A stretch of 64,000 nucleotides of DNA from a virus, in IMG/VR virus record IMGVR_UViG_3300047548_001818, positions 7,133-71,132 of that record; one strand, 5' to 3'. Position 1 is the first letter of the stretch, and every line of letters begins with the position of its first letter. The notes beneath the pieces are model-generated. The model searched no databases. It saw only the letters and a list, made by a program, of their open reading frames with translations, and had not been told where the DNA came from. The position numbers were made by a program, and so were the translations under genes. Below, in pieces: positions 7,278 through 38,110 of this stretch.

Positions 7278-7292
7278 ATGTGATAAAAATAC

Positions 7293-9032: not shown

Positions 9033-9037
9033 CGGTT

Positions 9038-9524: not shown

Positions 9525-9600
9525 GCGCCTGTGGCCAAGCGGTTAAGGCAGTGAACTCATAATTCATTGATCGGGGGTTCGAATCCCTCCGGGCGCACCA
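9525..9600 (+). tRNA. tRNA-Met (anticodon CAT)
   Basis: Starts one nt after the stop of the GGQ gene. Acceptor gcgcctg/cgggcgc. D arm gcc-aagcggttaa-ggc. Anticodon arm gtgaa-ctcataa-ttcat. T arm gggggttcgaatccctc. A73 and CCA. Confidence 0.8.
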
Positions 9601-13765: not shown

Positions 13766-14077
13766 ATGGCAAATATTAGAGGAATTAAATTGGTAACGGG
13801 TGAGGAAGTTATTTCCGAGGTAATCATCCAGCCAGATGGTAGATTCTTACTCAAGAATCCTGTGCAGCTAAGGATGGTTCCACCACAGATTGCAGGTAGC
13901 CAGCCATCTATGGGCTTTGTTCCTTTCCCAGCCTTCGGCAGTCAAGGTGAAAATATATTTGTAGAACCACTACATATAGTGTACAATTACACTCCTGACG
14001 AACAAATCGTTTCAAATTACAACCAAATGTTCGGTGCAGGCATCATCACCCCATCTAAACAAATTATAACTGGATAA
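13766..14077 (+). CDS. hypothetical protein (104 aa) upstream of DNA polymerase
   Basis: GGAG RBS 6 nt before ATG at 13766. The track ORF begins at 13748 without an RBS. Confidence 0.45.
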   Translation: MANIRGIKLVTGEEVISEVIIQPDGRFLLKNPVQLRMVPPQIAGSQPSMGFVPFPAFGSQGENIFVEPLHIVYNYTPDEQIVSNYNQMFGAGIITPSKQIITG

Positions 14078-16608: not shown

Positions 16609-16619
16609 AAAGGAATAAT

Positions 16620-17672
16620 ATGAGCATACTTGAGAAAATCAAAAAAAATAGCAGCATCAAAGATTCAGCCATTCTGGCTAAATCTAAATTTTTCACTGAT
16701 AAAGATATGATTCCCACTGCCGTGCCGGCGGTAAACATTGCTTTGTCTGGACGCCTAGATGGGGGTCTAACTCCAGGTCTAACAATGTGGGCGGGACCTT
16801 CAAAGCATTTCAAAACCGCATTTTCGCTTTTGATGGCTAAATCCTATCTAGACAAATATCCAGAATCCGCACTTTTGTTTTATGATTCTGAGTTTGGTAC
16901 ACCACAAGCGTATTTCGATACGTTTGGCATTGATGCAAATCGTGTGTTACATACTCCTATCATGGATATTGAACAACTAAAATTTGACATTATGAATCAA
17001 TTAACAAATCTAGAACGGGGTGATCGTCTAATCATTGTTATTGATTCTATTGGTAACTTGGCTTCGAAAAAGGAAGTTGAAGATGCTTTGGATCAAAAAT
17101 CTGTGGCAGATATGAGTCGAGCAAAACAAGTCAAGAGTTTGTTCCGAATGGTTACACCACACTTGACAATGAAAGACATTCCAATGGTTGTTGTCAATCA
17201 TACGTATAAAGAAATTGGAATGTTCCCGAAAGATATCGTCGGTGGTGGAACCGGTTCTTATTATTCCGCCGATAACATTTTTATTCTTGGTCGTCAGCAA
17301 GAAAAAGATGGTACAGAAATTACTGGCTACAATTTTATAATCAATGTAGAAAAGTCACGCTATGTCAAAGAAAAATCTAAAATACCTGTTAATGTATCTT
17401 TTGGTGGTGGCATTAACAAGTGGTCTGGTCTACTTGATATTGCACTTGAATCTGGGCATGTTATTAAACCTAGCAATGGTTGGTATTCAAAAGTAAACAT
17501 GGAAACAGGTGAAGTTGAAGATAAAAAATATAGAGAAAAAGATACAAATACTTCCGAATTTTGGTTGCCTATCTTGAAGCAAAAATCCTTCAGAGATTTT
17601 GTTGAAACGAAATATCGTGTTACCAATTCCGAAATTATTCAAGAACAGGATGAAGAAGATGAAACCGTTTAA
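16620..17672 (+). CDS. uvsX: UvsX recombinase (RecA-like)
   Basis: Near colinear with T4 UvsX. AKSKFFTDKDMIPTAVPAVNIALSGRLDGGLTPGLTMWAGPSKHFKT vs T4 TASKFFNEKDVVRTKIPMMNIALSGEITGGMQSGLLILAGPSKSFKS. Start set at MSILEKIKK, not the longer track ORF. Confidence 0.9.
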   Translation: MSILEKIKKNSSIKDSAILAKSKFFTDKDMIPTAVPAVNIALSGRLDGGLTPGLTMWAGPSKHFKTAFSLLMAKSYLDKYPESALLFYDSEFGTPQAYFDTFGIDANRVLHTPIMDIEQLKFDIMNQLTNLERGDRLIIVIDSIGNLASKKEVEDALDQKSVADMSRAKQVKSLFRMVTPHLTMKDIPMVVVNHTYKEIGMFPKDIVGGGTGSYYSADNIFILGRQQEKDGTEITGYNFIINVEKSRYVKEKSKIPVNVSFGGGINKWSGLLDIALESGHVIKPSNGWYSKVNMETGEVEDKKYREKDTNTSEFWLPILKQKSFRDFVETKYRVTNSEIIQEQDEEDETV

Positions 17673-17991
17673 GGAAGGTGTTGACTTTGTTTACGAAATT
17701 CCAAAGACAGAAGATACAACAGTTGGAATTAAAATTATCAGAGGAGAATATTCTGATACCATTTACCAATATGGTAAAGTGAAATTTGAAGAAGAGTCTG
17801 ATGGTGCCATTTATCTGAGATTCGTTTATAATGTCTTAGAATCTCCTTTAGATAAGGAGGAACTAGAAAAGAGTTCGCAGTTCAAAGACTATATCGGCGA
17901 TATTCTAGTTAATATTATCTCAGCAAATTTGGACAAAGGATTGATTGATGAGGCTGGAACAGACTATTCTGAAGAACCTGATTCACAATGA
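17650..17991 (+). CDS. hypothetical acidic protein between uvsX and the helicase gene
   Basis: ORF with internal start candidates at 17650 and 17659. Overlaps the gp41 start by about 47 nt. No motif recognised. Confidence 0.35.
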   Translation: MKKMKPFKEGVDFVYEIPKTEDTTVGIKIIRGEYSDTIYQYGKVKFEEESDGAIYLRFVYNVLESPLDKEELEKSSQFKDYIGDILVNIISANLDKGLIDEAGTDYSEEPDSQ

Positions 17992-19348
17992 GGAATTTTT
18001 GAGGAAAGTTTTACCTTTCCTCAAAGAGGATTATTTCAATGATCGAACAGAAAAAGTTATTTTTAAAGAAATAACTGAGTTCACAAATCAATATAATAAT
18101 TCACCAACAACGGAAGCTTTGGGTTTATCTCTGAAAGATAAGCGCAATCTAACAAGCGATGAGGTTGAAAAATGTGATGCCGTTCTAAAAGATTTGGCAA
18201 TTGCACCGGTCGAAAAAACACAAATTCAATGGTTGATTGATAAGACGGAAAAATTTTGCCAAGAAAAGGCAATTTACAATGCAGTTCTGGGTTCAATTTC
18301 TATTCTAGACGGTAAAGATAAAAGTCAAGACAAAGGTTCTATTCCTAAAATTTTGTCAGATGCACTTGCTGTCAGTTTCGATTCGTCGGTCGGTCATGAT
18401 TATTTGGAAGATTATGATGAGCGTTATGATTTTTATCATCGAAAAGAGGAAAGAATTCCTTTTGATTTGGAATACTTCAATAAGATAACCAAGGGTGGAT
18501 TGCCTGCGAAGACTTTGAATATTGCTCTTGCTGGTACTGGTGTTGGTAAATCTCTTTTCATGTGTCATGTTGCCGCAGGTTGTATGACACAAGGTAAAAA
18601 TGTATTGTATATTACACTTGAAATGGCTGAAGAGAAAATTGCCGAGAGGATTGATGCGAACCTACTGAATGTTTCCGTCGATGATCTTATGCAATTGACT
18701 AAAGATATGTATGATAAAAAAGTCAAGCGTGTCAAAGAAATGACGACAGGTAAACTTATTATCAAAGAGTATCCAACAGCCTCGGCTTCGTCCATACATT
18801 TTAGGACACTTTTAAATGAACTCAACCTCAAAAGGAACTTTGTTCCGGACATTATTTTCATTGACTATCTTAATATTTGTTGTAGTGCAAGAATCAAAGC
18901 CGGAGCAAACGTTAATTCTTACACCTACGTTAAAGCCATCGCCGAAGAATTGCGAGGTCTTGCGGTTGAATTCGGAGTACCAATTGTTTCTGCGACACAA
19001 ACAACAAGAAGTGGTTATACTTCTTCAGACCCAGGATTGGAAGACACAAGTGAATCTTTTGGTTTGCCAGCAACCGCAGATTTGATGTTTGCACTCATTT
19101 CTTCCGAAGAAATGGAAGCACTCAATCAAATTATGGTCAAGCAGTTGAAGAATCGTTATTCTGATCCAACACAATACAAAAGATTCGTCTTGGGTATTGA
19201 CAGGTCGAAAATGAGACTATATGATGTTGAACAGGATGCACAATATGGTATTGCGGATTCTGGTAAACAAGTGCAGGACAAACCTTTAAACACATTTGGA
19301 ATGAGGGAAATGAAGCCGAAAAATAAATTTGCAGGAATTAAAGTATAA
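17945..19348 (+). CDS. 41: DnaB-like replicative helicase (T4 gp41 homologue)
   Basis: N-terminus and Walker region align with T4 gp41. NKITKGGLPAKTLNIALAGTGVGKSL vs T4 NKITKGGAETGTLNVLMAGVNVGKSL. YITLEMAEEKIAERIDANLL vs YISMEMAEEVCAKRIDANML. Confidence 0.9.
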   Translation: MMRLEQTILKNLIHNEEFLRKVLPFLKEDYFNDRTEKVIFKEITEFTNQYNNSPTTEALGLSLKDKRNLTSDEVEKCDAVLKDLAIAPVEKTQIQWLIDKTEKFCQEKAIYNAVLGSISILDGKDKSQDKGSIPKILSDALAVSFDSSVGHDYLEDYDERYDFYHRKEERIPFDLEYFNKITKGGLPAKTLNIALAGTGVGKSLFMCHVAAGCMTQGKNVLYITLEMAEEKIAERIDANLLNVSVDDLMQLTKDMYDKKVKRVKEMTTGKLIIKEYPTASASSIHFRTLLNELNLKRNFVPDIIFIDYLNICCSARIKAGANVNSYTYVKAIAEELRGLAVEFGVPIVSATQTTRSGYTSSDPGLEDTSESFGLPATADLMFALISSEEMEALNQIMVKQLKNRYSDPTQYKRFVLGIDRSKMRLYDVEQDAQYGIADSGKQVQDKPLNTFGMREMKPKNKFAGIKV

Positions 19349-19369
19349 ATACTTTAATTTAGGGGTATT

Positions 19370-20119
19370 ATGGCTGCACAACAAGGTTTTCAATATGAAG
19401 TGAACGCCGCCAATGTTTTGAAACCTTTAGGATTGGTACCAAAAACATTTGTGCCAGCCGGTGCGGGCCACGATCAACCCGATTTAATGCTGGAATATAA
19501 AAAAATTAAGGCAGGTTGTGAATTAAAAATTACAGCAGCATCAGCCGGTTCTTTGGTTTTAAAATATGATTCGAAGGACAAAAAGAACCCCTGGAAATTT
19601 GGTGACATAAAGAAAGATGATGATGAAAAAATATTCATAAAGGAATTGGCAGAAGAAGTTGGCCTTTTTGATATTATCAAAAAGGAATGGAAAGAAATAC
19701 CCTTTAAAAGAGATAAAGACCTTTTATGGGAATCGACAGCAGGAAAACTAACTAATCAACAAAGATACGAAAGAGATAGGGACACATTTCCTGATATACG
19801 CGGTGAAATAAAAGCAGAAAAAATTGAACAATATTACAACAAAAAAGACACATATTATGTAAATGTGGGTACACACGGCTTTTACATGATGGGAAAAAAG
19901 AATCCATTAAAATTGAAGAATGTACCTACATTCGCATCAGCAGCAAAAGCCACATATCGAGCGAGAGTTCAATATAAAGGAGGAGGTAATTATCAATTTA
20001 CTTTTGAGATGCAATTTTCTATTCCTGCTGCCAAAAAATCAAAATTTAATATTGCACCAGTTGACGGTAAAACCGTCAACATAAAAAAAGATCAATTAAA
20101 TTTAACCTGTTTCATTTAA
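19370..20119 (+). CDS. hypothetical protein (249 aa)
   Basis: ORF with an AGGGG RBS. Lys-rich. No recognisable motif. Not ThyA/gp42-like. Confidence 0.45.
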   Translation: MAAQQGFQYEVNAANVLKPLGLVPKTFVPAGAGHDQPDLMLEYKKIKAGCELKITAASAGSLVLKYDSKDKKNPWKFGDIKKDDDEKIFIKELAEEVGLFDIIKKEWKEIPFKRDKDLLWESTAGKLTNQQRYERDRDTFPDIRGEIKAEKIEQYYNKKDTYYVNVGTHGFYMMGKKNPLKLKNVPTFASAAKATYRARVQYKGGGNYQFTFEMQFSIPAAKKSKFNIAPVDGKTVNIKKDQLNLTCFI

Positions 20120-20120
20120 T

Positions 20121-20402
20121 ATGCCATTAGACCTAAACATAGAAAAAATTCTCAAAGAATTTGATGAAGACGACGACTTCGGTTTTTCTGCCGTTTCTGA
20201 AGTTGAGTACAATAAAGTTATTAATGAATCTGCCGAAACGGCAGAAGCATACAAAGCTAAATTGGCTGAAGTTGAAAAACTTATCATACCCTTCTTAACC
20301 AAACTTTTGAAGACAGCCGACAAAGAATATATATACTGGCCAAATAGAAAACCAGCAATCGAAAAACAAATTGAAAAGATATTGAAACTGACTCGGAGTT
20401 AA
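20121..20402 (+). CDS. small acidic hypothetical protein (93 aa)
   Basis: ORF tightly packed between neighbours. Confidence 0.4.
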   Translation: MPLDLNIEKILKEFDEDDDFGFSAVSEVEYNKVINESAETAEAYKAKLAEVEKLIIPFLTKLLKTADKEYIYWPNRKPAIEKQIEKILKLTRS

Positions 20403-20403
20403 T

Positions 20404-21135
20404 ATGAATCCTTTGGTGACGGTCATAACGCCAACTACGGCAAGTGACCAATTGCATGATGTATTGAAATCAATAGATAAACAAACATATCAAAACATTC
20501 AACACTTGGTTGTTGTAGATGGTTTTGACAAGTATGGCGTAAAAGCCACACAAATAATGGAAGGCGCAAAACGATCCACTGCTTTTGCACTTCCTCACAA
20601 TACCGGTTATGACCAATACAACGGTCATAGAATATATGGTGCAATGTCATATATTGCAGAAGGTGAGTTCCTCTGCTTTCTGGATCAAGACAACTGGTAC
20701 GAAGATACACACATAGAGTCTCTGGTTGAAGTAATTCGCCAAGGAAATCAATGGGCATATTCTCTAAGAAAAATTGTTTCACAAGAAGGAACATTCATTT
20801 GTAATGATGATTGTGAATCTCTTGGTAAATGGAAATCTATTCTAAATGACAATTTTGTGGACGTTAATTGTTTCATGATTCCTAAAATGGCAGCAATTGC
20901 ATTTTCACCATACTGGTATCGTAGAGCTAGACACCCACAAGAACAACCAGAAGTTGATAGAATTTTATCGGCATTTATGATGCAAAATTTTAAAAAATTT
21001 GACACAAATGGTCAATATAGTGTAAACTATCGTGTAGCAAGTAGAGCAGATTCTGTACAAGATGTATTCTTCATTAAAGGTAATGAAGTGATGAAACAAA
21101 ATATGAATGGAGAATTTCCGTGGCGAAAGACTTAA
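20404..21135 (+). CDS. family 2 (GT-A fold) glycosyltransferase
   Basis: N-terminal VTVITPTTASDQL...SIDKQTY..VVVDG and the DxD-type LDQDN motif are typical of GT2 enzymes. Confidence 0.6.
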   Translation: MNPLVTVITPTTASDQLHDVLKSIDKQTYQNIQHLVVVDGFDKYGVKATQIMEGAKRSTAFALPHNTGYDQYNGHRIYGAMSYIAEGEFLCFLDQDNWYEDTHIESLVEVIRQGNQWAYSLRKIVSQEGTFICNDDCESLGKWKSILNDNFVDVNCFMIPKMAAIAFSPYWYRRARHPQEQPEVDRILSAFMMQNFKKFDTNGQYSVNYRVASRADSVQDVFFIKGNEVMKQNMNGEFPWRKT

Positions 21136-21998
21136 TTATAGGTGCATATACAAATTATGAATTCAATTTATTGAAACCTTGGATTTATTCCATCAAACAA
21201 ACCGACTTCGATGGTGATATTGTTTTAATTGCCATTGATCCAGACGAAAACACCGTAAAACAAATAGAAGATGCTGGTGTAATAGTAGTTAAGGCTAGAA
21301 ACGAACAAAAAATGAGAATTCATATGTTGCGTTTCTTGTACATATACAATTATCTAAAACACACAGATTATCGTTTCGTTATCACGACAGATGTTCGTGA
21401 TGTTATCTTTCAGAACAATCCGACAAAATATCTTTACACAACATTTGGTAGCAAATCAAAAGGTATCATTGCACAATCTGAGGCAATTAAAATTAAAGAT
21501 GAAGCCTGGAATCGTGATAATATCATTAAAAATTTTGGAGAATATTTTTACAATGATGTAAAGGACAATGAAGTATATAATGTTGGTCTGCTTGCTGGAA
21601 CTGCCGAATATGTTAAAGATTTATGTTTTGCTTTGTTTCAAATGTCAAGCAATCGTCCAGATTGGGTCGCCGACCAGGCAGCATACAATATGTTATTGAG
21701 TTATAAACCCTGGTCCGATATTGCAATAAAACTAAAGCTTGAAGATGGTTGGGCTTTGAATGCACACGTAACAAACAAGCCAGATCAAATGCAAGAATTT
21801 GGTCCTTATTTGTTGGAAGAAAGACCGTATATGAAAGATGGTGTGGTTTTTAATGCACAAGGAAAACCATTTACGATTGTACACCAGTATGATAGGGTTC
21901 CAGAGTGGACTATTTATTATATGGAAAAATTTCAATTTTCTATCAAATCGGACACCAATACCGGCAGTTCACCTAAATACTTCATCTACAATACATAA
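21120..21998 (+). CDS. putative nucleotide-sugar-dependent glycosyltransferase (292 aa)
   Basis: Placement in the glycan cluster. No firm motif match. Assignment is tentative. Confidence 0.3.
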   Translation: MAKDLIIGAYTNYEFNLLKPWIYSIKQTDFDGDIVLIAIDPDENTVKQIEDAGVIVVKARNEQKMRIHMLRFLYIYNYLKHTDYRFVITTDVRDVIFQNNPTKYLYTTFGSKSKGIIAQSEAIKIKDEAWNRDNIIKNFGEYFYNDVKDNEVYNVGLLAGTAEYVKDLCFALFQMSSNRPDWVADQAAYNMLLSYKPWSDIAIKLKLEDGWALNAHVTNKPDQMQEFGPYLLEERPYMKDGVVFNAQGKPFTIVHQYDRVPEWTIYYMEKFQFSIKSDTNTGSSPKYFIYNT

Positions 21999-22016
21999 TT
22001 TTATAAATATGAGGCT

Positions 22017-22853
22017 TTGAATATGAGCAAAATTTCTATCGTAACCGCTTTCTATGACATTGGCCGAAGTGATTGGTCGATGGATGTACACAAAAATGGT
22101 GGTCCACTTCCACACTATTTACAAAGATCGACAGAAAAATATATCGAGCATTTCAAACGAATGTGCGAGATTGATACTGAAATCATTGTTTACACATCCT
22201 CTGATCTAGCATCAAAACTCGGTGAGATTTCACCGAATGTTAAAGTTGTCGAATATGACTACTTTAATATACATAAAGAACTCCGTGACAAGATTGAAGA
22301 AATACAAACATCACCTGAGTTCATAAAAAGAATAAATCCATATCAAGTAAGAAATCCCGAATACTGGTCAAAAGACTATGTTGGTGTAACATCACTAAAG
22401 GCTTTCTATGTGAGTGATGCTTTTGAGCGTGGGTTAATCACCAATGAATGGGCTGCCTGGGTTGACTTTGGTTATTGTCGTGATGCAGAACATATTCCAA
22501 AAACCAAAAAATGGGAATATGATTTCACACCAGGTAAAATGCACTTCTTTAACTATCGTGATCCGGACATTAATAAGAAACTTGAACAAATCCAGCTTGC
22601 GGTATTAAACAATATCGTCTATATCATCGGCGGTGTTTTTGTTGGTGAAAAAACACAATGGAAGATGCTTGAAGATAGTATGAGCAAATCAATGGAATTT
22701 TTAATGTACAACAAGCTCGTTGATGATGACCAAGGTCTTCTATTGAGTTCATATTTTATGAATCCAGAAATGTATGAATTGCATAAAATGCCATTAGTTG
22801 CTCCAATTGAAGATGTTAGATCCATAATTAAGAAGTTTAATAATCATGAATAA
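22017..22853 (+). CDS. HtrL/YibB-like putative polysaccharide-biosynthesis glycosyltransferase
   Basis: N-terminal SIVTAFYDIGRSDW is the hallmark of the HtrL/YibB family as I recall it. Confidence 0.4.
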   Translation: MNMSKISIVTAFYDIGRSDWSMDVHKNGGPLPHYLQRSTEKYIEHFKRMCEIDTEIIVYTSSDLASKLGEISPNVKVVEYDYFNIHKELRDKIEEIQTSPEFIKRINPYQVRNPEYWSKDYVGVTSLKAFYVSDAFERGLITNEWAAWVDFGYCRDAEHIPKTKKWEYDFTPGKMHFFNYRDPDINKKLEQIQLAVLNNIVYIIGGVFVGEKTQWKMLEDSMSKSMEFLMYNKLVDDDQGLLLSSYFMNPEMYELHKMPLVAPIEDVRSIIKKFNNHE

Positions 22854-24231
22854 ATTAGTAATTTTTGACCTTGATGGTGTATTAATTGATTCTAGAGAAA
22901 TACACTATGATGCATTAAATGATGCTCTGAGAAAAGTGGGTGAACAATATGTCATTTCTAGAGAAGAACATTTAAGCTTATACGATGGTTTAAATACGAC
23001 TAGAAAACTTAAGATGTTGACCGAAAAAAAAGGTTTACCTGTTTCTGAATATGATAAGATTTGGTCTGACAAGCAAGAAGCAACATTCACTATTGTTAGA
23101 GGTTTCAATAAAGAATATTGGTTACAAACCATGTTCAGAAAAATAAAAGCAAGAGGATATAAAATTGCTGTTGCTTCGAATTCAATTCGTGAGACAGTAA
23201 AATTGTCTCTTATAAGTATTGGGCTAATTGAAGAAGTTGATTATTTTGTTAGCAATGAGGATGTAAGTAGAGCAAAGCCATATCCCGAAATGTATTGGAA
23301 ATGCATGACAGCTTTGAATGCTTTACCCAAAAATACTATCATTGTCGAAGATAGTCACATCGGCCGACAAGGTGCTTTAGATTCTGGCGCACATTTATTA
23401 CCAGTTGAAAACGCACAAGAAGTTAACAGTGAAAATATGATGCAAAGGATTTATGACCTTATGAATACAATTGAAGGAACAAGTAAAAAATCTCTACCTT
23501 GGAGAGATAACAAACTAAACGTTTTGATTCCAATGGCTGGCGCAGGCTCACGTTTTTCTACTGCCGGTTATACTTTTCCAAAACCACTTATTGAAGTTCG
23601 CGGTAAACCAATGATTCAAGTTGTTGTCGAAAACTTGAATATTGAAGCTAACTACATTTTCTTAGTACAAAAAGAACACTATGAAAAATATAACTTGAAG
23701 TATCTTCTGAATCTAATTGCTCCAAATTGTAAGATTGTGCAAGTAGATGGTCTAACAGAAGGTGCAGCTTGTACGACTTTATTGGCAAAAGAATATATTG
23801 ATAATGATGCGCCTCTAGTCATGGCAAATTCGGATCAATACGTTGATTGGAATTCTAATGAATGCATGTACGCTTTCTCAGCAGATTCTATTGATGGTGG
23901 CATTCTAACATTTGAAGCAACGCATCCGAAATGGTCTTATGCAAAACTTGATGAGAATGGATTTGTTTCTGAAGTTGCAGAGAAGAAAGTTATTTCCAAT
24001 AATGCAACAGTTGGCATTTATTACTGGCGTCACGGTTCAGACTATGTTAAATATGCTGAACAGATGATTAAAAAAGATATTCGCGTTAACAATGAATTTT
24101 ATGTTTGTCCCGTTTTCAATGAAGCGATTGGTGACGGTAAAAAAATTCGTGTTAAAAATGTTGAAGCTATGTGGGGTATTGGAACCCCAGAAGATTTAAA
24201 TTATTTTTTGAGCAATCACAAGGAAGATTAA
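22846..24231 (+). CDS. bifunctional HAD-superfamily phosphatase/phosphomutase plus sugar-1-phosphate nucleotidyltransferase
   Basis: N-terminus LVIFDLDGVLIDS is HAD motif I. C-terminal half VLIPMAGAGSRFSTAGYTFPKPLIEVRGKPMI matches the G-x-G-x-R...K-P-x-I signature of RmlA/GlmU-type NTP transferases. Confidence 0.65.
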   Translation: MNKLVIFDLDGVLIDSREIHYDALNDALRKVGEQYVISREEHLSLYDGLNTTRKLKMLTEKKGLPVSEYDKIWSDKQEATFTIVRGFNKEYWLQTMFRKIKARGYKIAVASNSIRETVKLSLISIGLIEEVDYFVSNEDVSRAKPYPEMYWKCMTALNALPKNTIIVEDSHIGRQGALDSGAHLLPVENAQEVNSENMMQRIYDLMNTIEGTSKKSLPWRDNKLNVLIPMAGAGSRFSTAGYTFPKPLIEVRGKPMIQVVVENLNIEANYIFLVQKEHYEKYNLKYLLNLIAPNCKIVQVDGLTEGAACTTLLAKEYIDNDAPLVMANSDQYVDWNSNECMYAFSADSIDGGILTFEATHPKWSYAKLDENGFVSEVAEKKVISNNATVGIYYWRHGSDYVKYAEQMIKKDIRVNNEFYVCPVFNEAIGDGKKIRVKNVEAMWGIGTPEDLNYFLSNHKED

Positions 24232-24232
24232 A

Positions 24233-24847
24233 ATGAAATATTTTTTTGATGTTGGAGCACACTGGGGACAAGACTCTCTACATATTGCAAAAGATGACCC
24301 AGATACTACAGTTATTGCTTTTGAGCCAACGCCGGAGTTAGCTTCTAGATTGAGGTGGATTGCCAAAGAAGGGAAATTTGAAAGCCGCTATAAAGTATAT
24401 CAGCAAGCAATTTCAGATTTTGATGGTGAATCAGATTTTCATCTTGTTGTCGGTGATACCGGTTCGGCCTCTCTTAACGAATTCAATGACAATCTACATC
24501 AAACTTGGCCAGGTAGAACAGACTTTGTTGTTAGAGGCTCAATCAAAGTAAATGTATACAGACTCGAAACGTGGCTGCCTTTGTTTGCACCGGAAGTAAC
24601 AGAAATTGAACATTTACATATTGATGCTCAAGGCTCCGATTTAGCAGTTTTAAGAGGTCTAGGTTCCAAACTCTCGATGGTGAAATCTGGTGTCGTTGAA
24701 GTGCCACAAGCTGCTGCTTTACGACTGTATAAGGGTCAACACACGAAAGAAGAAACTCTCCAATTTTTGGAAGAGAATGGTTTCGAAGTTACAAATGTGA
24801 CTTCACAGGTTAATGAGGATAATATTTTCTTTCAGAGAAAAAAATGA
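24233..24847 (+). CDS. FkbM-family SAM-dependent methyltransferase
   Basis: FDVGAHWGQDSL...VIAFEP resembles the FkbM family glycine-rich SAM-binding start. Confidence 0.5.
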   Translation: MKYFFDVGAHWGQDSLHIAKDDPDTTVIAFEPTPELASRLRWIAKEGKFESRYKVYQQAISDFDGESDFHLVVGDTGSASLNEFNDNLHQTWPGRTDFVVRGSIKVNVYRLETWLPLFAPEVTEIEHLHIDAQGSDLAVLRGLGSKLSMVKSGVVEVPQAAALRLYKGQHTKEETLQFLEENGFEVTNVTSQVNEDNIFFQRKK

Positions 24848-25557
24848 AAGTTGCATTGTTATTAACAGGTCATATGCGGTGTTGGAATCAAGTATTTCCA
24901 AATACCAAAAACCATATCATGGACAAATATAATCCAGATGTTTTCATCGAGACATGGGATTCTGAAGCATACTGGGATCCACATTCTTCAAAGGGTATAA
25001 CCGAAGGTGGTCCCAATTTGAATGTTGATGCGATTCAACGTACTTACAAACCAGTATACATGAATGTGGAAAAATACGAAGAATTTGAAGAAAATTTTTC
25101 TCAACGAGCTAAGGAATTTACTAATTTCTATCATGTACCGAAAAACCAAATTTCCATGTGGTTTAAAGTAGGTCGTGGTATGCTCGCTGTTGAAGAGCAT
25201 ATGATGTTGACAGGCAAAACATATGATGTTATAATTCGTATGCGTCCAGATTTGTACTTCAATGAACCTTTACCAGATTTTGATCCGAACAAATTTTATA
25301 CCTTGGGATTTAGAAATCATATGGGTCAAGGAACCTCCGATATGATTCAAGTTGGAAACTTCTTTACCATGAGCTTATTCTGTAAAGTTCTTTATCATTT
25401 ACCACATCTTTATAAGGAAACCGGTCTTTTGTGTCCGCATGTTATTTCAGAACACTTCATTAAAAGATTGGGATTACCCTGGCAAGAATTTATGGTTAAC
25501 AAAACAATAATGCACACACCTCTAGGCGAATATAAACACAAGAGTCTGTACCAATGA
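24844..25557 (+). CDS. putative sugar-modifying enzyme, paralogue A
   Basis: N-terminus MKVALLLTGHMR...DVFIETW parallels that of 26005-26712 (MRLALCLSGQPR...DVFFHTW). Confidence 0.4.
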   Translation: MKVALLLTGHMRCWNQVFPNTKNHIMDKYNPDVFIETWDSEAYWDPHSSKGITEGGPNLNVDAIQRTYKPVYMNVEKYEEFEENFSQRAKEFTNFYHVPKNQISMWFKVGRGMLAVEEHMMLTGKTYDVIIRMRPDLYFNEPLPDFDPNKFYTLGFRNHMGQGTSDMIQVGNFFTMSLFCKVLYHLPHLYKETGLLCPHVISEHFIKRLGLPWQEFMVNKTIMHTPLGEYKHKSLYQ

Positions 25558-26048
25558 TACTAATTGCACACAGAGGTCTTTTCAGTGGGCCTGATATCGA
25601 AAAAGAGAATACACCAAAACAAATCGAACTTGCATTGGAAAAAAATTACGATTGTGAAGTTGATGTTTGGTACGTTAAAAATGAATGGTGGCTAGGTCAT
25701 GACAAACCACAATATAAAGTTGATTGGAACTTTATTGGAAAGGAAGGTTTGTGGCTGCACTGTAAGAATCTAGATGCTTTATATGAACTGACTTACAGCC
25801 CATTCAAGTACACTTATTTCTGGCATCAGGAAGACGATTTTACTTTAACTTCGAATCATTACATCTGGACTTATCCTGGAAAATCTCTAACCAGAAATTC
25901 AATTTCTGTGCAACCAGAAAGAACGGAAGAAATGTGGACATGGACCAAAAGTTGTTCACTAGGTATAGCTGGTGTTTGTACAAAATATGTTGAAAGATTT
26001 GTGAATGAGATTAGCACTTTGTCTATCGGGACAACCGAGAAGCTATAA
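25554..26048 (+). CDS. glycerophosphodiester phosphodiesterase (GDPD)-like protein
   Basis: LIAHRG...EKENT and the CEVDVW acidic motif match the GDPD H-R-x...E-N-T / E-x-D signature. Shorter (164 aa) than typical GDPDs. Confidence 0.5.
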   Translation: MILIAHRGLFSGPDIEKENTPKQIELALEKNYDCEVDVWYVKNEWWLGHDKPQYKVDWNFIGKEGLWLHCKNLDALYELTYSPFKYTYFWHQEDDFTLTSNHYIWTYPGKSLTRNSISVQPERTEEMWTWTKSCSLGIAGVCTKYVERFVNEISTLSIGTTEKL

Positions 26049-26712
26049 AAAAGCTTTTGAATTTATAAGTAGAAATTTACTTGAAAAATATACTGTTGAC
26101 GTTTTCTTTCATACGTGGGTGAACGTACCGGAGAATAGTTATATTTTTGACGAACTGCAACAACTTTATAGACCTGTTATTGCTTCTTATGACTATTCTT
26201 TACCGTCAAATGTAAATTCACACATGTTGGTTCCAAATGGCTCACATCCAGCCAATTTTTGCACATCAATGTTTTACTCTATTAATGTTGCAAATGAATA
26301 TAGGGTCAAGCATGAAGTTTTTGGTGCATTTCGTTATGATTTTGTTATACGAAGTAGATTTGATTTTGCGCTAAACAAAGTGATTGATTTTGGTTCTCTG
26401 GAAACAAATAAACTCTATGTTCCAAAAGATGTTGAAGGACCGGCACTTTTAAATGACCAGTTTGCCATAGCTGATTCTGATACGATGAATGTCTATGCGT
26501 CAACGTTCTTATATCTGCAAAAATTGTATAATTCTGGAGTTCCACTTTGTGGGCATGAAATGTTGCAGGAACAACTGACAAGAAATTCTACGCCAGTTGA
26601 ACGTATCGACCTTGACCATCCTTTCGTTGATGGTGATTTTAATAGAGGAAGACACTCTCTGATACGTGAAGATATGTCAAAATGGGTCGATATTAAAATT
26701 TGGGGCTACTAA
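26005..26712 (+). CDS. putative sugar-modifying enzyme, paralogue B
   Basis: Paralogue of 24844-25557. Start overlaps the GDPD gene by 44 nt. Confidence 0.4.
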   Translation: MRLALCLSGQPRSYKKAFEFISRNLLEKYTVDVFFHTWVNVPENSYIFDELQQLYRPVIASYDYSLPSNVNSHMLVPNGSHPANFCTSMFYSINVANEYRVKHEVFGAFRYDFVIRSRFDFALNKVIDFGSLETNKLYVPKDVEGPALLNDQFAIADSDTMNVYASTFLYLQKLYNSGVPLCGHEMLQEQLTRNSTPVERIDLDHPFVDGDFNRGRHSLIREDMSKWVDIKIWGY

Positions 26713-26748: not shown

Positions 26749-27942
26749 ATGAAACAATTTTTGCAGTATTTGCAGGAAGAACTGGACCCGGAAGAGGGTG
26801 CCAGTAGGCAAATAAAACACCTAACACATATCGAAGATCGTATTTTGCAAACCGGAGACAAAGGTGCAAAACACGCAATTTCGTCATTGGAAACTGCGGC
26901 TGAACACATCAGTCAAGGTAAAAAGTCATCGCAACTGACAACAAAATATGACGGTTCACCAGCAATCGTTTACGGTCATCACCCAGAAAACGGTAAGTTT
27001 TTTGTTGCTTCCAAGTCAGCTTTCAACAAAACACCAAAAATCAACTATACGCCTGCCGATATAGAAAAAAACCATGGCCATGCTCCTGGCTTGGTTGAGA
27101 AGTTGAAAGCAGCACTGAAACATTTACCGAAAGTTGCACCAGAAAAAGGTGTTTACCAGGGTGATATGATGTTCTCGGATGTAGACAAGAAACACTCAAA
27201 AGATGCCGTTTCTTTCAGACCAAATCCCTCTGGTATAACTTACACTGCACACGGTCAACATGCAACAAAAGCTAAAAAGGCCAAAATTGGTGTAGTAACT
27301 CATTTATCATATGAAGGCAAAAATTCTGCTAGTTTAAATGCATCGCACGAAGTTGACCATGAAAATTTCGGGCAACATTCTGATGTATTCTCGGTTGACC
27401 CAAGAATGGACACTTCTAAAGTACATTTCGGTCCAAAAGACAGAGCAGAATTCAAAAAACACATTGCCGCAGCTAGATCAGTTCACGATACGCACGGTGA
27501 CGACATGTATGCAGGAACAAAAGCACATCAAGGTATAGGTGGTCATTTAGAGACTTACATCAATCACACTGTTAGGAGTGATGAAGAACCTAATCATGAA
27601 AATTTTAAAAAGTGGTTGGAAAATAAGAAAAATAAAGAAATTGAAAAATTGAAGGTTGAAAAAAATAAAAAGTCCAAACAGCAAGAGTTATCAGCGGAAT
27701 TAGATAAGATTGAAAGAAATAAAAAGCACTATAATAATGTTTTCAAAATGCATGGTCATTTACAAAAAGCAAAAAATGTGCTGATTAATGTTCTAAATCA
27801 ACATCAAGAATTTCAACATGAACACGCTGGTGAACCAGCAAATCCTGAAGGATACGTTTTCCATCACGGAAAAGAATCGGATAAATTTGTAAACAGAAGC
27901 GAATTCTCAAAAAGAAATTTTGCCGGAATAAGAAACATATGA
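26749..27942 (+). CDS. RNA ligase 1 (RnlA)-like nucleotidyltransferase with a Lys-rich insertion
   Basis: Motif I LTTKYDGSPAIVYG...FFVASKSAF aligns with T4 Rnl1 LTKEDGSLVSTYLDG..ILFKSKGS. Downstream EGYVFHHGKESDKFVNRSEF aligns with T4 [20 protein letters not shown] (motifs IV/V). Confidence 0.5.
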   Translation: MKQFLQYLQEELDPEEGASRQIKHLTHIEDRILQTGDKGAKHAISSLETAAEHISQGKKSSQLTTKYDGSPAIVYGHHPENGKFFVASKSAFNKTPKINYTPADIEKNHGHAPGLVEKLKAALKHLPKVAPEKGVYQGDMMFSDVDKKHSKDAVSFRPNPSGITYTAHGQHATKAKKAKIGVVTHLSYEGKNSASLNASHEVDHENFGQHSDVFSVDPRMDTSKVHFGPKDRAEFKKHIAAARSVHDTHGDDMYAGTKAHQGIGGHLETYINHTVRSDEEPNHENFKKWLENKKNKEIEKLKVEKNKKSKQQELSAELDKIERNKKHYNNVFKMHGHLQKAKNVLINVLNQHQEFQHEHAGEPANPEGYVFHHGKESDKFVNRSEFSKRNFAGIRNI

Positions 27943-29840
27943 AAAAATTTCTAGAAAAAGTGGAAGACGATTTGCAAACCAAAAGCCCAGTCGTAATGGC
28001 TTTTGGTAGAATGAATCCGCCCACAGTTGGGCATGAGAAACTTGTAAACAGAGTTAAAGAAATAGCTAAAGACTATAATGCTCCACACCATGTTATAATT
28101 TCACATTCTGTTGATGCAAACAAAAATCCACTTGATGCTAAAGCAAAACTGAAACACGCCCAGAGATTTTTTCCTGGCACAAATTTATCAACTTCCAGTA
28201 AAGAACTTCCAACTTTCTTGCAACACGCTGCAAAGTTAAATGCAGCAGGACATGACCATTTAATTATGGTTGCAGGCTCGGATAGAATTCCAGAATATGA
28301 AAAGAAGTTGCATGATTATAATGGACCAAAAGATAAAAATCCAAAAGCACTTTTCAATTTCAAAAAAATTGAGTTGAAATCTGCGGGGCATCGTGATCCT
28401 GACTCTGAAGGTGTTGAAGGTATGTCTGCCTCAAAAATGAGGGAACATGCAAAAAATAATGATTTTCATAGCTTCAAGATGGGTGTACCTGAGCATGTGC
28501 CCGAGAAACACGCCAGAGAACTTTTCAGAGATGTTAGAAAAGGTATGGGTATACATGAAGATTCTAGTCATGGTTTGTTCAAAGCACTCTTCATTTGTGG
28601 TGGTCCCGGTTCCGGTAAAGATATCATCATACGTGAAGCAATTGCTGAAAGAAACGCGGTCGAACTGAATTCAACTCTTGCAATTAATATTCTCAACGAC
28701 AAACATAAGTTACATGAACAGTCTAAAGATTTCAGAAGAGAAGCTATTCGCAAAAGAATGCCGTTGATTGTAAATGGCACAACGAATGAACAATTCAATA
28801 TTATTGAAATTAAAAATGAGTTGGAAGAACTCGGTTACGAAACAATGATGATTTTCGTAAACACGACAAACGAAGCTTCGAAAAAAAGAAACAATGGACA
28901 TGAAAGAGTTATGTCCGAATCTGTTCGTCAAGAAAGATGGGATAAGACTCAACTTGTAGCTGAAAAAATGAATCAAATTTTTACAAAATATCTGGAATTT
29001 GATAACTCTTTGGACTTGAATGAAGCTACAATTTTCGAAATGTCGGAGAAAGAAGAAGATATAGCAATCATTTATGAAATGTCCAACTGGTTTTTCGACA
29101 CTCAAGTAAACAACGAAATTGCAGAAACTTGGTTAGAAAAAAATAGAAAAAAGGATATAAACCAAGTATTCGAATCCTTTATTAAAAATCCTTTGAAAGG
29201 TAGAAAAAATGTTTCAGAAATTAAAGCAAATCGCAAGACTATTTTTGCCGAAAGTGGATGCAAATGCAAAACATCCTTTGGATATTCAGAAGTATCAGGT
29301 AGAGGAAAACAAAAGCTCACAGACAACATCTGCCCAAGTTGCGAGCTTACTAGAAAAGCCGGTAGAGAAGACGATGTTAGAGACGGAGACACCAAATCAA
29401 ACATTAGTTACACATTCAGAACCTACCACGAAGGAACAACCCCAACCATCCAAGTCAACCCAGAGCCCAAAGAAACGCGCTTCCAGCAAGACAACGACAA
29501 GCAAAAAAACAGGAAACAAAAAGCCGCACCAAGCCAAAGCGGCAAAGTAATGAACACTGCTGGTGTTAGCCCAGAATATGATACACGCGCTCAAGGTTCT
29601 GTTTACCCAATGTCTGGTCTTGGAAATGTTACATATAGAGAACAGAAAGAGAATAAATATACCAGTACCGCAGAGGTAACACGCAAATCGTTTGTAAAAT
29701 TCAGAAAAGAATCTATTGATTCTCCAAGTGTCGAAATGGGAGTTACTGGCGGAGAATATGGTCCTTCAAACAAAGAACCGTTGGAAACTCCAGGCGATAA
29801 AGTATTGAATCAAAATTCAAATAAAAAGAAGAAAAAATGA
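27939..29840 (+). CDS. fused HxGH-type nucleotidyltransferase (NMNAT/cytidylyltransferase-like) plus P-loop kinase, with a long disordered C-terminus
   Basis: VVMAFGRMNPPTVGHEKL (T/HxGH motif) and GMSASKMRE (ISSTxxR-like motif) define a nucleotidyltransferase alpha/beta fold. LFICGGPGSGKDIII is a Walker A kinase motif. A NadR-like arrangement. Confidence 0.5.
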   Translation: MKKFLEKVEDDLQTKSPVVMAFGRMNPPTVGHEKLVNRVKEIAKDYNAPHHVIISHSVDANKNPLDAKAKLKHAQRFFPGTNLSTSSKELPTFLQHAAKLNAAGHDHLIMVAGSDRIPEYEKKLHDYNGPKDKNPKALFNFKKIELKSAGHRDPDSEGVEGMSASKMREHAKNNDFHSFKMGVPEHVPEKHARELFRDVRKGMGIHEDSSHGLFKALFICGGPGSGKDIIIREAIAERNAVELNSTLAINILNDKHKLHEQSKDFRREAIRKRMPLIVNGTTNEQFNIIEIKNELEELGYETMMIFVNTTNEASKKRNNGHERVMSESVRQERWDKTQLVAEKMNQIFTKYLEFDNSLDLNEATIFEMSEKEEDIAIIYEMSNWFFDTQVNNEIAETWLEKNRKKDINQVFESFIKNPLKGRKNVSEIKANRKTIFAESGCKCKTSFGYSEVSGRGKQKLTDNICPSCELTRKAGREDDVRDGDTKSNISYTFRTYHEGTTPTIQVNPEPKETRFQQDNDKQKNRKQKAAPSQSGKVMNTAGVSPEYDTRAQGSVYPMSGLGNVTYREQKENKYTSTAEVTRKSFVKFRKESIDSPSVEMGVTGGEYGPSNKEPLETPGDKVLNQNSNKKKKK

Positions 29841-30310
29841 AAACGTTTCTACAATATTCAAAAGAGCGAGACAAGGAAGAGCTTGAAAGACAAATGCGCC
29901 ATCATTTCGAAATGGCTCAAAGAAGTCTTGACACGGCTCAAGAATTGCAAAGTAAAGGTGACATGGATGGTTTTCACACATTTATGGCAAAGCACCACCA
30001 TTTTCAAACTCAAGGTGAGTATTTAAAAACTCACTTGAATGAGGCTTCTCCAGCGTGGCAAAGAAAAGCTGGTAAAAGCCCAACTGGCGGTCTGAATCGC
30101 AAAGGTATTGCTTCTTATCGTCGTGAAAATCCTGGTTCAAAACTGTCAATGGCAGTGACAACACCTCCTTCAAAGTTGAAGCCAGGAAGCAAAGCTGCAA
30201 AAAGAAGAAAATCCTTCTGTGCAAGAATGGGTGGTATGCCTGGTCCAATGAAGGATGAAAAGGGTCGCCCAACTAGAAAAGCTTTATCGTTACGTAAATG
30301 GAACTGCTAA
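29837..30310 (+). CDS. basic hypothetical protein (157 aa)
   Basis: Lys/Arg/His-rich ORF, translationally coupled to the upstream gene. Confidence 0.45.
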   Translation: MKTFLQYSKERDKEELERQMRHHFEMAQRSLDTAQELQSKGDMDGFHTFMAKHHHFQTQGEYLKTHLNEASPAWQRKAGKSPTGGLNRKGIASYRRENPGSKLSMAVTTPPSKLKPGSKAAKRRKSFCARMGGMPGPMKDEKGRPTRKALSLRKWNC

Positions 30311-30325
30311 TAAACGGAGAAAAAA

Positions 30326-31117
30326 ATGTTCAATAATATTTTCAAGAAAAATGATCCTGTTGCTGATATGATCGCTCAAATTGCTGAAGCCGATTACAAA
30401 GCAAAAATGGAAGAGCTTAAAGGTCAACAGCATAAGATTGACAAAAACAAGAACAACAAGATTGATGCACACGACTTTGCAATTCTTCGTGGCGAAAAGA
30501 AAGCCATGAAAAAAGAAGAAGTTGATAGTGTTGAAGAAGCTAACAATCCATTTGATGTTAAGAACTACAAGAGTCAATTGAAATCAAAACCAGGTGAAAA
30601 AGCTGGCTTTGACTCCAAGAAAACATCTACTGGTACTGTTTATTCAAGAAAGCCAGTCAAAGATGAGCCAATGAAAAAGGAAGAAATTGACCCGAACAAG
30701 ACAACAGTTGACACGTTAAATGGTCGTGAAAAAGATTCTAAGAATCCTTTTCTTTCGAAGAAAGTGTTCATGGATGTACCAGATAATGTAAAAGAAGAAA
30801 CTGAACAAATTGATGAGTTGAAAAAAACGACTGTCAAATCTTATCTAAAGAAAAAAGTTGATACTCTCCCAGGAAAAGATCCAAAGAAAGACCAGGAAAG
30901 CATGATGAGAGCGCATCATCGTGTTACTGGTGTTAAACCAACTTCTGAAGAAGTTGAAAAAATCGACGAGCGTGAACTTACTAAAGGTGAAACCGCAGAA
31001 AAAGAACGTATCGTTAAAGGAATGAAAAAGAGTTTTGCTGGTTTCAAACAGCGTTACGGTGATAAAGCAAAATCAGTTATGTATGCTACCGCTACAAAGG
31101 CAGCTAAAAAGGATTGA
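30326..31117 (+). CDS. highly charged Lys/Glu-rich protein with an EVEQIDEL motif
   Basis: Low-complexity K/E/D composition. Shares the EETEQIDELKK motif with the next gene. Confidence 0.5.
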   Translation: MFNNIFKKNDPVADMIAQIAEADYKAKMEELKGQQHKIDKNKNNKIDAHDFAILRGEKKAMKKEEVDSVEEANNPFDVKNYKSQLKSKPGEKAGFDSKKTSTGTVYSRKPVKDEPMKKEEIDPNKTTVDTLNGREKDSKNPFLSKKVFMDVPDNVKEETEQIDELKKTTVKSYLKKKVDTLPGKDPKKDQESMMRAHHRVTGVKPTSEEVEKIDERELTKGETAEKERIVKGMKKSFAGFKQRYGDKAKSVMYATATKAAKKD

Positions 31118-37087: not shown

Positions 37088-38110
37088 ATGTCCATTTTTA
37101 TTGATCGTAAATACCTAAACCTCCTTTCGCCAAAATTAAACAGGTTCTCTCAGAAAAAAGAGGACCTGTACAATTTCAGGTGCCCTTTCTGCGGCGACTC
37201 CCAAAAAAATAAATTCAAAGCACGCGGTTACATTTACCGCAAAAAGAATGACTATTACTACAAGTGTCAAAATTGTGGTGTTGGTCATACAATGTATAAT
37301 TTTATCAATTTTTTGGACCCCAATCTTGTTAAAGAGTACGCATTAGAGCGTTACAGGAACGGTGAAACCGGAAACCAAAATTATCCAAAAAAGGAAATAC
37401 AAGAACCAAAATTTGAAAAACCGGTTTTCAAGAAAAAACAAAAAATTAATTTACCAAAAATTAGTGATTTGCCACAAGACCACTATGCACACAATTATTG
37501 CATAGGACGAAAAATTCCATCGGATACATATGGTAATCTATATTATGCAAATGATTTCAAAGCCTTCATCGATGAAATTTTACCAGATCATGAAAAAGAC
37601 TTGAAATTAGATGATCCTCGTCTTATTATTCCCTTCTATGATGAAGATGGAACGTTACTTGCTGTACAAGGGCGTTCGTTGCGAGATTCCAAAATCAGAT
37701 ATATAACAATCAAACTTACCGAAGAGAGTATAAAAATATTTGGTTTGGATAGAGTGAACAAAGAAGAAAAGGTGTATGTTACAGAAGGACCAATTGATTC
37801 CTTTTTTCTACCAAACTCGGTAGCAACTGCGGATGCCAACTTATCTAATGCGGTAAATTTTGTACCAAAAGATAAATTGGTTTTAGTTTTCGACAATGAA
37901 CCCAGAAATAAAGATATTTGCCGTCTAATGGACAAAGCAATTGAGGAACATTTTCAAATTTGCATTTGGCCAGAGATGATTCAGGAAAAAGACATAAATG
38001 ATATGATTCTTTCAGGATTTACTTCTGAAGAAATTTGTGATATAATAGATAAAAACACTTTCGTTAATTTAAGAGCAAAAATGGAATTTATAGGATGGAA
38101 AAAAGTATGA
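37088..38110 (+). CDS. 61: DNA primase (T4 gp61 / T7 primase-type zinc-ribbon plus TOPRIM)
   Basis: N-terminal CPFCGDSQKNKFKARGYIY...CQNCG zinc ribbon. Acidic TOPRIM-like segment (YVTEGPIDSFFLPNSVA). Located in the replication gene set. Confidence 0.65.
   Translation: MSIFIDRKYLNLLSPKLNRFSQKKEDLYNFRCPFCGDSQKNKFKARGYIYRKKNDYYYKCQNCGVGHTMYNFINFLDPNLVKEYALERYRNGETGNQNYPKKEIQEPKFEKPVFKKKQKINLPKISDLPQDHYAHNYCIGRKIPSDTYGNLYYANDFKAFIDEILPDHEKDLKLDDPRLIIPFYDEDGTLLAVQGRSLRDSKIRYITIKLTEESIKIFGLDRVNKEEKVYVTEGPIDSFFLPNSVATADANLSNAVNFVPKDKLVLVFDNEPRNKDICRLMDKAIEEHFQICIWPEMIQEKDINDMILSGFTSEEICDIIDKNTFVNLRAKMEFIGWKKV

Follow-up and report, generated by a model that had tools for sequence, protein, structure and literature searches.

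A compact glycosyltransferase and sugar-activation island in the replication region of an uncultured T4-like phage, predicted to build a methylated oligosaccharide on a non-DNA acceptor

Islands of glycosyltransferase and sugar-activation genes are among the commonest auxiliary gene sets of aquatic T4-like phages, and none has a demonstrated acceptor. The pelagimyophage and cyanomyophage literature assigns such clusters to modification of the host O-chain or lipopolysaccharide (LPS) by assumption (PMC7029224, PMC12801897). Here we describe an eight-gene island of this kind at positions 20404-26712 of a 64,000-nucleotide stretch of viral DNA (IMG/VR record IMGVR_UViG_3300047548_001818, positions 7,133 to 71,132; hereafter the window). 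Its most likely role is to assemble a short O-methylated oligosaccharide on an acceptor other than DNA. From the family ties of its genes we tentatively place that acceptor in the envelope of the infected Gram-negative host, as a lipid A-core or other LPS-type glycolipid; the host LPS core is slightly favoured over virion proteins.

The locus resembles the islands of the cyanophages S-CAM9, S-PRM1, S-SM2, Bellamy and B3, of P-SSM2-type phages and of pelagimyophages in clustering glycosyltransferases with nucleotide-sugar enzymes. Homologs of its genes are found in the cyanophage islands: a HAD-nucleotidyltransferase fusion (66-67% identical in S-CAM9, S-PRM1 and B3), a minimal GDPD-fold enzyme (mini-GDPD, 37-47%) and DUF7796 proteins (22-27%). 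The cyanophage islands lie in the auxiliary metabolic gene/host-recognition region and carry epimerases, dehydratases and heptose enzymes, whereas the island here is a compact 6.3 kb between the gp41 and primase genes, has HtrL and FkbM genes and lacks those enzymes. Judged by gene content, the locus belongs to the carbohydrate or 'LPS' islands already known in aquatic T4-like phages. With Waa-type LPS core loci it shares an HtrL/YibB member and soluble glycosyltransferases with the lipid A-core of the inner leaflet as a possible substrate; unlike them it has no heptosyl or Kdo transferases, kinases or ligase, is phage-encoded, and brings its own sugar activation and a GDPD. Chloroviruses and mimiviruses glycosylate capsids and fibrils with GT-A transferases, FkbM-like methyltransferases and nucleotide-sugar enzymes of their own, and mycobacteriophages glycosylate capsid and tail proteins. 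The chlorovirus and mimivirus systems (PBCV-1 A064R) share with the island soluble GT-A transferases, an FkbM-type methyltransferase, a nucleotide-sugar supply and the DUF7796 fold family; here, unlike there, the host is bacterial, the proteins are separate rather than multidomain, and no glycosylated structural protein has been identified. DNA glycosylation systems (T4 alpha- and beta-gt with gp42; arabinosylated 5-hydroxycytosine (5hoC) in RB69 and DLP3; sets of a methyltransferase (MT), 5mYOX and a glycosyltransferase) likewise belong to lytic phages with glycosyltransferases near replication genes. Further likenesses to these are the activation logic of a HAD enzyme plus a nucleotidyltransferase, a kinase in some relatives of the island, and possible late expression. 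Unlike them, the island has acidic transferases, its phage avoids restriction-type palindromes, and a base-hydroxylating or hydroxymethylating enzyme was not found in ~83 kb (the window with the 10 kb upstream of it and the 9.5 kb that follow, up to the end of its 179,337-bp contig). The methyltransferase and GDPD of the island are not among the components listed for the DNA systems (bioRxiv 10.1101/2023.12.21.572611, PMC13326640).

The window is found exactly on this Joint Genome Institute (JGI) metagenome contig, at about positions 106,084-170,083. The island consists of eight plus-strand open reading frames (ORFs) that overlap or lie at most 18 nt apart (Table 1), and the JGI gene calls agree with all eight. 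It is flanked by gp41 and two ORFs without functional assignment on one side and by DUF6267 on the other. An earlier interpretation made without database searches (the sequence-only reading) had proposed eight consecutive genes over exactly this range, forming a sugar-activation and glycosyltransferase cluster, and both points stand. Its GT2, HtrL/YibB-like, HAD-nucleotidyltransferase and FkbM families were recovered as Pfam or NCBIfam profile matches. As for the two further glycosyltransferases that it suggested, the HtrL_YibB assignment is firm (Pfam 1.9e-44, 152.7 bits vs a cutoff of 24.1) and that of ORF2 weak. The GDPD-like enzyme has the expected fold and catalytic motif but neither Pfam/NCBIfam membership nor a full-length barrel. 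The two paralogs sharing a DVF(I/F)xTW motif are indeed related (BLASTP 5e-12, 21% identity), with DVFIETW in paralog a and DVFFHTW in paralog b. The order had been misread: rather than a GDPD followed by two paralogs, the genes run FkbM, paralog, GDPD, paralog.

The fusion is the best-conserved gene of the island, at 87-95% identity in relatives with the same gene set. The N-terminus of its product falls in the HAD-IA beta-phosphoglucomutase/sugar-phosphatase subfamily, the C-terminus is an RmlA-like sugar-1-phosphate nucleotidyltransferase, and the closest solved structure is PDB 4evw (1.5e-15). The HAD domain scores below the equivalog cutoffs of both bPGM (1.3e-20, 74.2 bits vs 189.4) and PGMB-YQAB (4.9e-24, 85.5 vs 153.35). 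The identity of the fusion to the cyanophage proteins exceeds that of the gp43 polymerase, which is ~50% identical at best to that of any isolate, with cyanomyoviruses as top matches; this difference suggests exchange of the module. From its family we infer that the FkbM enzyme carries out sugar O-methylation.

The GT2 protein gives weak NCBIfam matches to TuaG, AglG, PglI, HpsN and AglJ, and through these its nearest curated families appear to be enzymes of polyprenol-linked surface glycans. ORF2 has no Pfam match of its own; nine of its 37 homologs weakly match PF03407 Nucleotid_trans (best 1.1e-3), and a TDVRD motif (T90 D91 V92 R93 D94) is invariant in the family. Single-sequence and profile searches of ORF2 against solved structures returned no match, and hhalign indicated no relation to DUF7796. 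The product of the HtrL gene matches NCBIfam YibB at 3.9e-66. Since it scores above the Pfam gathering threshold and below the NCBIfam equivalog cutoffs, we regard it as a member of the HtrL_YibB family and not as a YibB ortholog. This family is known only from LPS and lipooligosaccharide (LOS) core loci (PMC4172580), and a literature search found no functional study of it. Campylobacter phages A11a and A18a carry a homolog with 35% identity. Single-sequence PDB searches with the HtrL protein and with the product of the ORF at 19370 gave nothing useful.

The DUF7796 paralogs have, on structural modelling, a GT-A Rossmann-like fold and are hence further predicted transferases. Their GT-A structural matches include mannosylglycerate and glucosyl-3-phosphoglycerate synthases; single-sequence and profile searches against the PDB gave nothing useful and a literature search on DUF7796 found nothing. 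Among viruses, the nearest structural relatives of the DUF7796 protein are, among others, proteins of Catovirus, Fadolivirus, Tupanvirus, Sylvanvirus, chlorovirus MT325 and CroV (E 1e-11 to 1e-18). A chromosomal glycan island in an alphaproteobacterial metagenome-assembled genome likewise holds four DUF7796 paralogs, interleaved with genes of the GT2 and GT4 families; it was the one such locus found in a pattern-based GTDB scan that under-samples the cellular distribution.

Between the two paralogs lies the mini-GDPD gene. Its product has the conserved GDPD catalytic motif His-Arg ... Glu-x-Asp ... His; the catalytic residues H6, R7, E35, D37 and H49 do not vary among 52 homologs and align with those of 7e0v. 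The protein is short, 164 aa against 218-330 aa in the matched chains and ~220-250 aa for a full barrel. It has no Pfam or NCBIfam match, a single-sequence PDB search gave nothing useful and a profile search of the PDB reached only E 0.51. On the structural model it is a GDPD-fold relative and not a member of Pfam GDPD. The family has >1100 members at 90% clustering, with a Pfam domain in none of the 120 listed. A nucleotidyltransferase homolog lies within 4 kb upstream of the mini-GDPD in 67 of 72 IMG/VR loci, and the remaining five loci end upstream; this obligate pairing would place the enzyme in the precursor branch. Starting from a glycerophosphodiester, it may supply a phosphorylated substrate; alternatively, it may process a group in phosphodiester linkage. 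On several large phage contigs (100-275 kb; L011 7121-10456, L014 7187-10462, L144, L147 and L164) a mini-GDPD closes a conserved module in the order nucleotidyltransferase, ~109-aa protein, RuBisCO-large-subunit-like protein (397 aa), ~215-aa protein, mini-GDPD. The RuBisCO-like and ~109-aa proteins stand between nucleotidyltransferase and mini-GDPD on some large contigs, and the module that contains them suggests an unusual sugar or alditol phosphate pathway.

Using DUF6267 as an anchor, we collected >595 related IMG/VR loci and typed the best 80, in which at least four alternative cassettes occupy the slot from gp41 to DUF6267. Type A has the eight genes of this island, with proteins 55-95% identical, similar to the flanking genes. 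Type B encodes GT2, ORF2, Methyltransf_24, an unassigned protein, a DUF7796-like protein, an APH-type kinase, a nucleotidyltransferase-HAD fusion and a second unassigned protein; type C has GT2, ORF2, HtrL, Methyltransf_24 and one unassigned protein; type D has GT2, ORF2, HtrL, two unassigned proteins, a HAD-nucleotidyltransferase and a mini-GDPD. GT2 and ORF2 are thus constant across all four. A methyltransferase is recognisable in types A, B and C, being Methyltransf_24/TylF-like in place of FkbM in B and C; none was detected in type D, in which the two extra ORFs have no Pfam match. By analogy, the variety of cassettes in this slot is like that seen at O-antigen or core loci. In isolates, the families of the nucleotidyltransferase, DUF7796 and the mini-GDPD occur together only in Synechococcus myoviruses (S-CAM9, S-PRM1, S-8S53/55/56, DSL-LC03, B3/B23, SynMITS9220M01, Bellamy and S-SM2), where the triad sits within larger carbohydrate islands of epimerases, glycosyltransferases and heptose-type enzymes.

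The octamer TATAAATA is the T4 late-promoter consensus. It occurs three times in the window, always in intergenic sequence 14-19 nt before a start codon. The site at 19344 is kept exactly in four diverged relatives (L006, L024, L027 and L032), and where the site before the HtrL gene (22002) stands here the relatives carry AATAAATA. No TATAAATA precedes the polymerase, uvsX, gp41, primase or nrdA genes in the window. From the consensus match we regard the TATAAATA and AATAAATA sites as predicted late promoters.

Taken together, these genes would form a self-contained, soluble cytoplasmic enzyme set that makes an activated sugar and then a glycan. The fused HAD domain, acting as a beta-phosphoglucomutase-like mutase, would convert a host hexose-6-phosphate to the 1-phosphate, and the fused nucleotidyltransferase would then form the nucleoside diphosphate (NDP) sugar. 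Relatives with the alternative type B cassette would arrive at the same point by means of a HAD phosphatase, an anomeric kinase of the APH type and a nucleotidyltransferase, a combination of kinase and fusion that matches the phosphatase/anomeric-kinase/pyrophosphorylase logic of UDP-arabinose synthesis in RB69-type phages (PMC13326640). On the simplest reading, types A and B would both turn a host sugar phosphate into an NDP-sugar, the kinase-free type A by way of a mutase step. The mini-GDPD, paired with the nucleotidyltransferase, would supply or trim a phosphodiester-linked component. Up to five GT-A-type transferases (GT2, ORF2, HtrL and the two DUF7796 proteins) would add residues in turn, and the FkbM enzyme would methylate a sugar hydroxyl, capping or decorating the glycan. 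The host MsbA/Lpt machinery would export the altered glycolipid, changing the cell surface during infection.

The placement of the acceptor in the host envelope draws on the tie of the HtrL family to LPS/LOS core, the weakly matched neighbours of GT2, the bacterial DUF7796 island and the diversity of cassettes. No transmembrane-like segment was found in the island proteins (the highest 19-residue hydropathy is 1.79, a borderline value for HtrL, the others being at most 1.23), which is compatible with peripheral enzymes of the Waa type and calls for no phage-encoded exporter. Wzx/Wzy, ABC-dependent O-antigen or capsule and Gtr systems were considered and rejected, as the island has no initiating phosphoglycosyltransferase, flippase, polymerase or transporter, no GtrA/GtrC Pfam families and no membrane proteins. 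Several points weigh against a host glycolipid made in this way. The acceptor is deduced from family associations, and a Gram-negative host is presumed. DNA glycosyltransferases themselves derive from LPS or teichoic-acid enzymes (bioRxiv 10.1101/2023.12.21.572611). Of the three TATAAATA sites in the window, two are conserved ones within the island or immediately ahead of it, and expression late in infection would suit glycosylation of the virion more than an early remodelling of the surface. Relatives of DUF7796 are found in giant viruses of eukaryotes, whose hosts lack LPS. Within the pathway, the sub-cutoff beta-phosphoglucomutase scores leave the HAD domain as either a mutase or a phosphatase, and ORF2 is a putative glycosyltransferase by weak assignment.

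It is possible, if somewhat unlikely, that the same enzymes place the methylated oligosaccharide on structural proteins of the phage, in the cytoplasm and late in infection. The predicted late promoters stand directly before both transcription units of the island and are conserved in diverged relatives, in contrast to the neighbouring replication genes, and with all enzymes soluble neither a lipid carrier nor an exporter would be needed. The giant-virus relatives of DUF7796 point in the same direction, and chloroviruses, mimiviruses and mycobacteriophages offer precedents. Against this, the island sits in the replication module and not beside structural genes, the GT-A structural matches are of a kind that the fold in general would give, the other associations of HtrL are with LPS core loci, and agreement with a promoter consensus does not prove when a gene is expressed. 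Nor are we aware that glycosylated virions have been reported for aquatic phages of the T4 type.

A soluble product (a methylated oligosaccharide, a solute of the glycosyl-glycerol or glycerate type, or a shift in the NDP-sugar pool) or the glycosylation of a non-structural protein, with no glycan on surface, virion or DNA, is unlikely. The mannosylglycerate and glucosyl-3-phosphoglycerate synthases among the structural matches would suit such a product, small phospho-metabolites are substrates of HAD phosphatases and of GDPD enzymes, and the nucleotidyltransferase-GDPD pairing and the RuBisCO-like protein of related modules point to small-molecule chemistry upstream. Five transferases and a diversity of cassettes nevertheless exceed the needs of a single solute, and the family contexts of HtrL and GT2 are polymer or glycolipid loci.

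Hypermodification of the phage DNA, with a complex and possibly methylated glycan on a modified base that blocks restriction and CRISPR, had been the first suggestion of the sequence-only reading; we consider it quite improbable. The island does have replication genes around it. Mono- to trisaccharides are attached to 5-hydroxymethylcytosine by GT-A and GT-B enzymes of phages that are related to enzymes of LPS or teichoic acid (bioRxiv 10.1101/2023.12.21.572611), and in RB69 and DLP3 a HAD phosphatase, a nucleotidyltransferase-kinase and glycosyltransferases polyarabinosylate 5hoC (PMC13326640). The contig also encodes a gp1-like deoxynucleoside monophosphate (dNMP) kinase beside a glycosyltransferase-like gene, and a MazG-like nucleoside triphosphate (NTP) pyrophosphohydrolase after ThyX. 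The suggestion had leaned on synteny with T4 beta-gt, and this argument fails: the T4 record runs 43-imm-42-bgt-segA-uvsX-40-41-dmd...61, with beta-gt and 42 between 43 and uvsX, whereas in this phage 43 directly adjoins uvsX and the island comes after 41, in the gap before 61. Characterised DNA-glycosylation pathways normally cluster with a ThyA-homolog or an MT/5mYOX pair (bioRxiv 10.1101/2023.12.21.572611), and the RB69 and DLP3 glycosyltransferases with a ThyA-homolog (PMC13326640). The glycosyltransferase genes here are not clustered with a base-modifying enzyme, as bgt is with 42 in T4.

The search of ~83 kb found no ThyA-homolog, TET/5mYOX or C5-methyltransferase, and no dCMP/dUMP hydroxymethylase. 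Thymidylat_synt, TET_JBP and DNA-methylase had no match in the scanned window ORFs or in the precomputed Pfam lists, which covered contig positions 96355-116804, 122088-142795 and 159569-179337. As the sequence-only reading had stated, ThyX is present and no gp42-like gene was found in the window; dCMP deaminase and ThyX point to a canonical supply of thymidine monophosphate. Homologs of T4 gp42 are rare or absent in Synechococcus phages, the sole isolates that share the core module, and the DUF7796 paralogs recur in a bacterial chromosomal glycan island. The five candidate transferases are all acidic, with isoelectric points (pI) of 5.5-6.9 compared with 9.05 for T4 beta-gt. Palindromes of 6 bp are depleted in the 83 kb, with a mean observed/expected ratio (O/E) of 0.72 vs 1.00 for other hexamers (p 1.7e-9). 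Nine are absent (TGATCA, CTGCAG, GTCGAC, AGATCT, TGCGCA, CACGTG, CAGCTG, CGATCG and GCTAGC; 8-36 of each expected, both strands counted), whereas 66 kb of T4 used as a control gave 0.97 (p 0.18) with none absent. Only the 6-bp result was used, palindromes of 4 bp being non-discriminating (T4 0.87, this phage 0.88). Such purging of restriction sites disfavours blanket protection of the bases by a glycan, since a protected genome should not need it; the argument is indirect. Position, the lack of such a base-modifying gene in the ~83 kb, the acidic transferases and palindrome avoidance all speak against DNA, and the alternatives that the sequence-only reading had also named, a host-surface or virion glycan, possibly teichoic-like, fit better. 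A narrower version, in which a methylated and possibly phosphodiester-containing oligosaccharide is carried on DNA through a base handle from an enzyme outside the ThyA-homolog and MT/TET routes or encoded elsewhere on the contig, with the gp1-like kinase and MazG-like protein feeding the pathway, seems to us a shade less probable still. Among short motifs, GGCC (O/E 0.56) and GATC (0.58) are strongly avoided in the 83 kb.

Should the acceptor be a virion protein or DNA, the reading of 'LPS genes' in marine and freshwater viromes would change; with host LPS as the acceptor, it would be nothing out of the ordinary. The locus is in either case a compact, well-delimited test case, with eight genes in 6.3 kb, late-type promoter motifs, an abundant lineage and a slot with alternative cassettes. 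It brings out three poorly described families, namely DUF7796, with a GT-A fold and common to giant viruses, the large mini-GDPD family, and ORF2. The hypervariable slot with its constant GT2 and ORF2 pair is itself worth recording.

Table 1. Island genes, late-promoter-like sites and T4-type landmark genes, in window coordinates.
Feature	Position	Strand	Remarks
DNA polymerase gp43	14077-16608		
UvsX	16563-17672		
Helicase gp41	17945-19348		
TATAAATA, late-promoter-like	19344-19351	+	19 nt upstream of the ORF opening the unit with GT2 and ORF2
Two upstream ORFs (249 aa, pI 9.4; 93 aa)	19370-20402	+	Between gp41 and island
GT2-family glycosyltransferase, 243 aa	20404-21135	+	Pfam Glycos_transf_2 1.9e-8, 34.9 bits vs cutoff 23.3
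ORF2, probable GT-A-type nucleotide-sugar transferase, 292 aa	21120-21998	+	phrog_1579 glycosyltransferase 4e-7
TATAAATA, late-promoter-like	22002-22009	+	In the gap (18-24 nt) that precedes the HtrL gene
HtrL/YibB-family protein	22017-22853	+	Likely start ATG 22023, giving 276 aa
HAD-nucleotidyltransferase fusion	22846-24231	+	HAD_2 8.7e-26 (N-terminal); rmlA_long 2.9e-14 (C-terminal)
FkbM-family S-adenosylmethionine-dependent methyltransferase	24233-24847	+	Methyltransf_21 1e-15; TIGR01444 3.6e-19, above cutoff
DUF7796-like GT-A-fold transferase (predicted), paralog a	24844-25557	+	phrog_13607 2e-15; shares the invariant residues of the family
Minimal GDPD-fold enzyme (mini-GDPD), 164 aa	25554-26048	+	TIM-barrel fold from structure prediction
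DUF7796 GT-A-fold transferase (predicted), paralog b	26005-26712	+	Passes Pfam DUF7796 threshold
Primase (gene 61)	37088-38110		
ThyX	38095-38769		
NrdA/NrdB	39124-42139		
RNase H	44654-45502		

The two ORFs upstream of the island have no Pfam match; they hit phrog_26930, a family of unassigned function, at 2.5e-17 and have homologs in many related loci. They may be co-transcribed with the island and possibly belong to it. The genes downstream (26749-29840) were considered as an extension of the cluster and rejected, DUF6267 being constant while the island varies. The DUF6267 protein has a KYDG motif resembling ligase/capping motif I, and its partner is a cytidylyltransferase-like and P-loop-kinase-like protein with a long low-complexity tail; the two may constitute a system akin to RNA repair. 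Ahead of DUF6267, relatives carry TATAAATA and a conserved hairpin, GGCAACCAAAGTGTGTTGC. Four consecutive basic, Lys/Glu-rich proteins (pI 9.0-10.3) are encoded at 27939-32976, where AT skew is high (0.17-0.32).

From its recognised T4-type replication genes the window is part of a T4-like myovirus, and the phage belongs to an abundant uncultured T4-like lineage; a megablast search with the island found no match in 50,697 phage records. A tRNA array on the plus strand (176-9600) holds 28 genes by ARAGORN and 29 by Rfam, covers most amino acids and has rubrerythrin-like, dCMP deaminase and RNaseH-like genes scattered within it. The MazG/PRA-PH-like NTP pyrophosphohydrolase gene is small (38762-39112) and lies directly between ThyX and NrdA. 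Amid the replication genes are also a protein with a MazE-antitoxin-like C-terminus (46833-47216, 1.1e-7) and a YspA-related protein of the SLOG family (50912-51334, 1.9e-12). A 2-kb patch at 52000-54000 has a GC content of 0.51 against a background of ~0.36; the ORF within it (53198-54313, 371 aa) has no Pfam match and is weakly similar to freshwater-spring phage contigs.

Within positions 2627-4107 of our locus L098, about 7 kb upstream of the window on the same contig, lies the gene for a 272-aa glycosyltransferase-like protein with a weak Pfam Anp1 match (6.5e-5) and a FIDSD motif. Homologs 32-57% identical to it occur in pelagiphage HTVC023P and in T4-like phages infecting Stenotrophomonas, Caulobacter and Sinorhizobium. 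It is directly followed by the T4 gp1-like dNMP kinase gene (DNMK, 6.2e-11) and then by gp45/44/62. A 440-aa protein encoded upstream on the contig (857-2179 of L098) matches the Pfam family of DruA, the Druantia defence protein A (3.3e-22), and a peptide deformylase gene adjoins this phage-encoded DruA-like gene.

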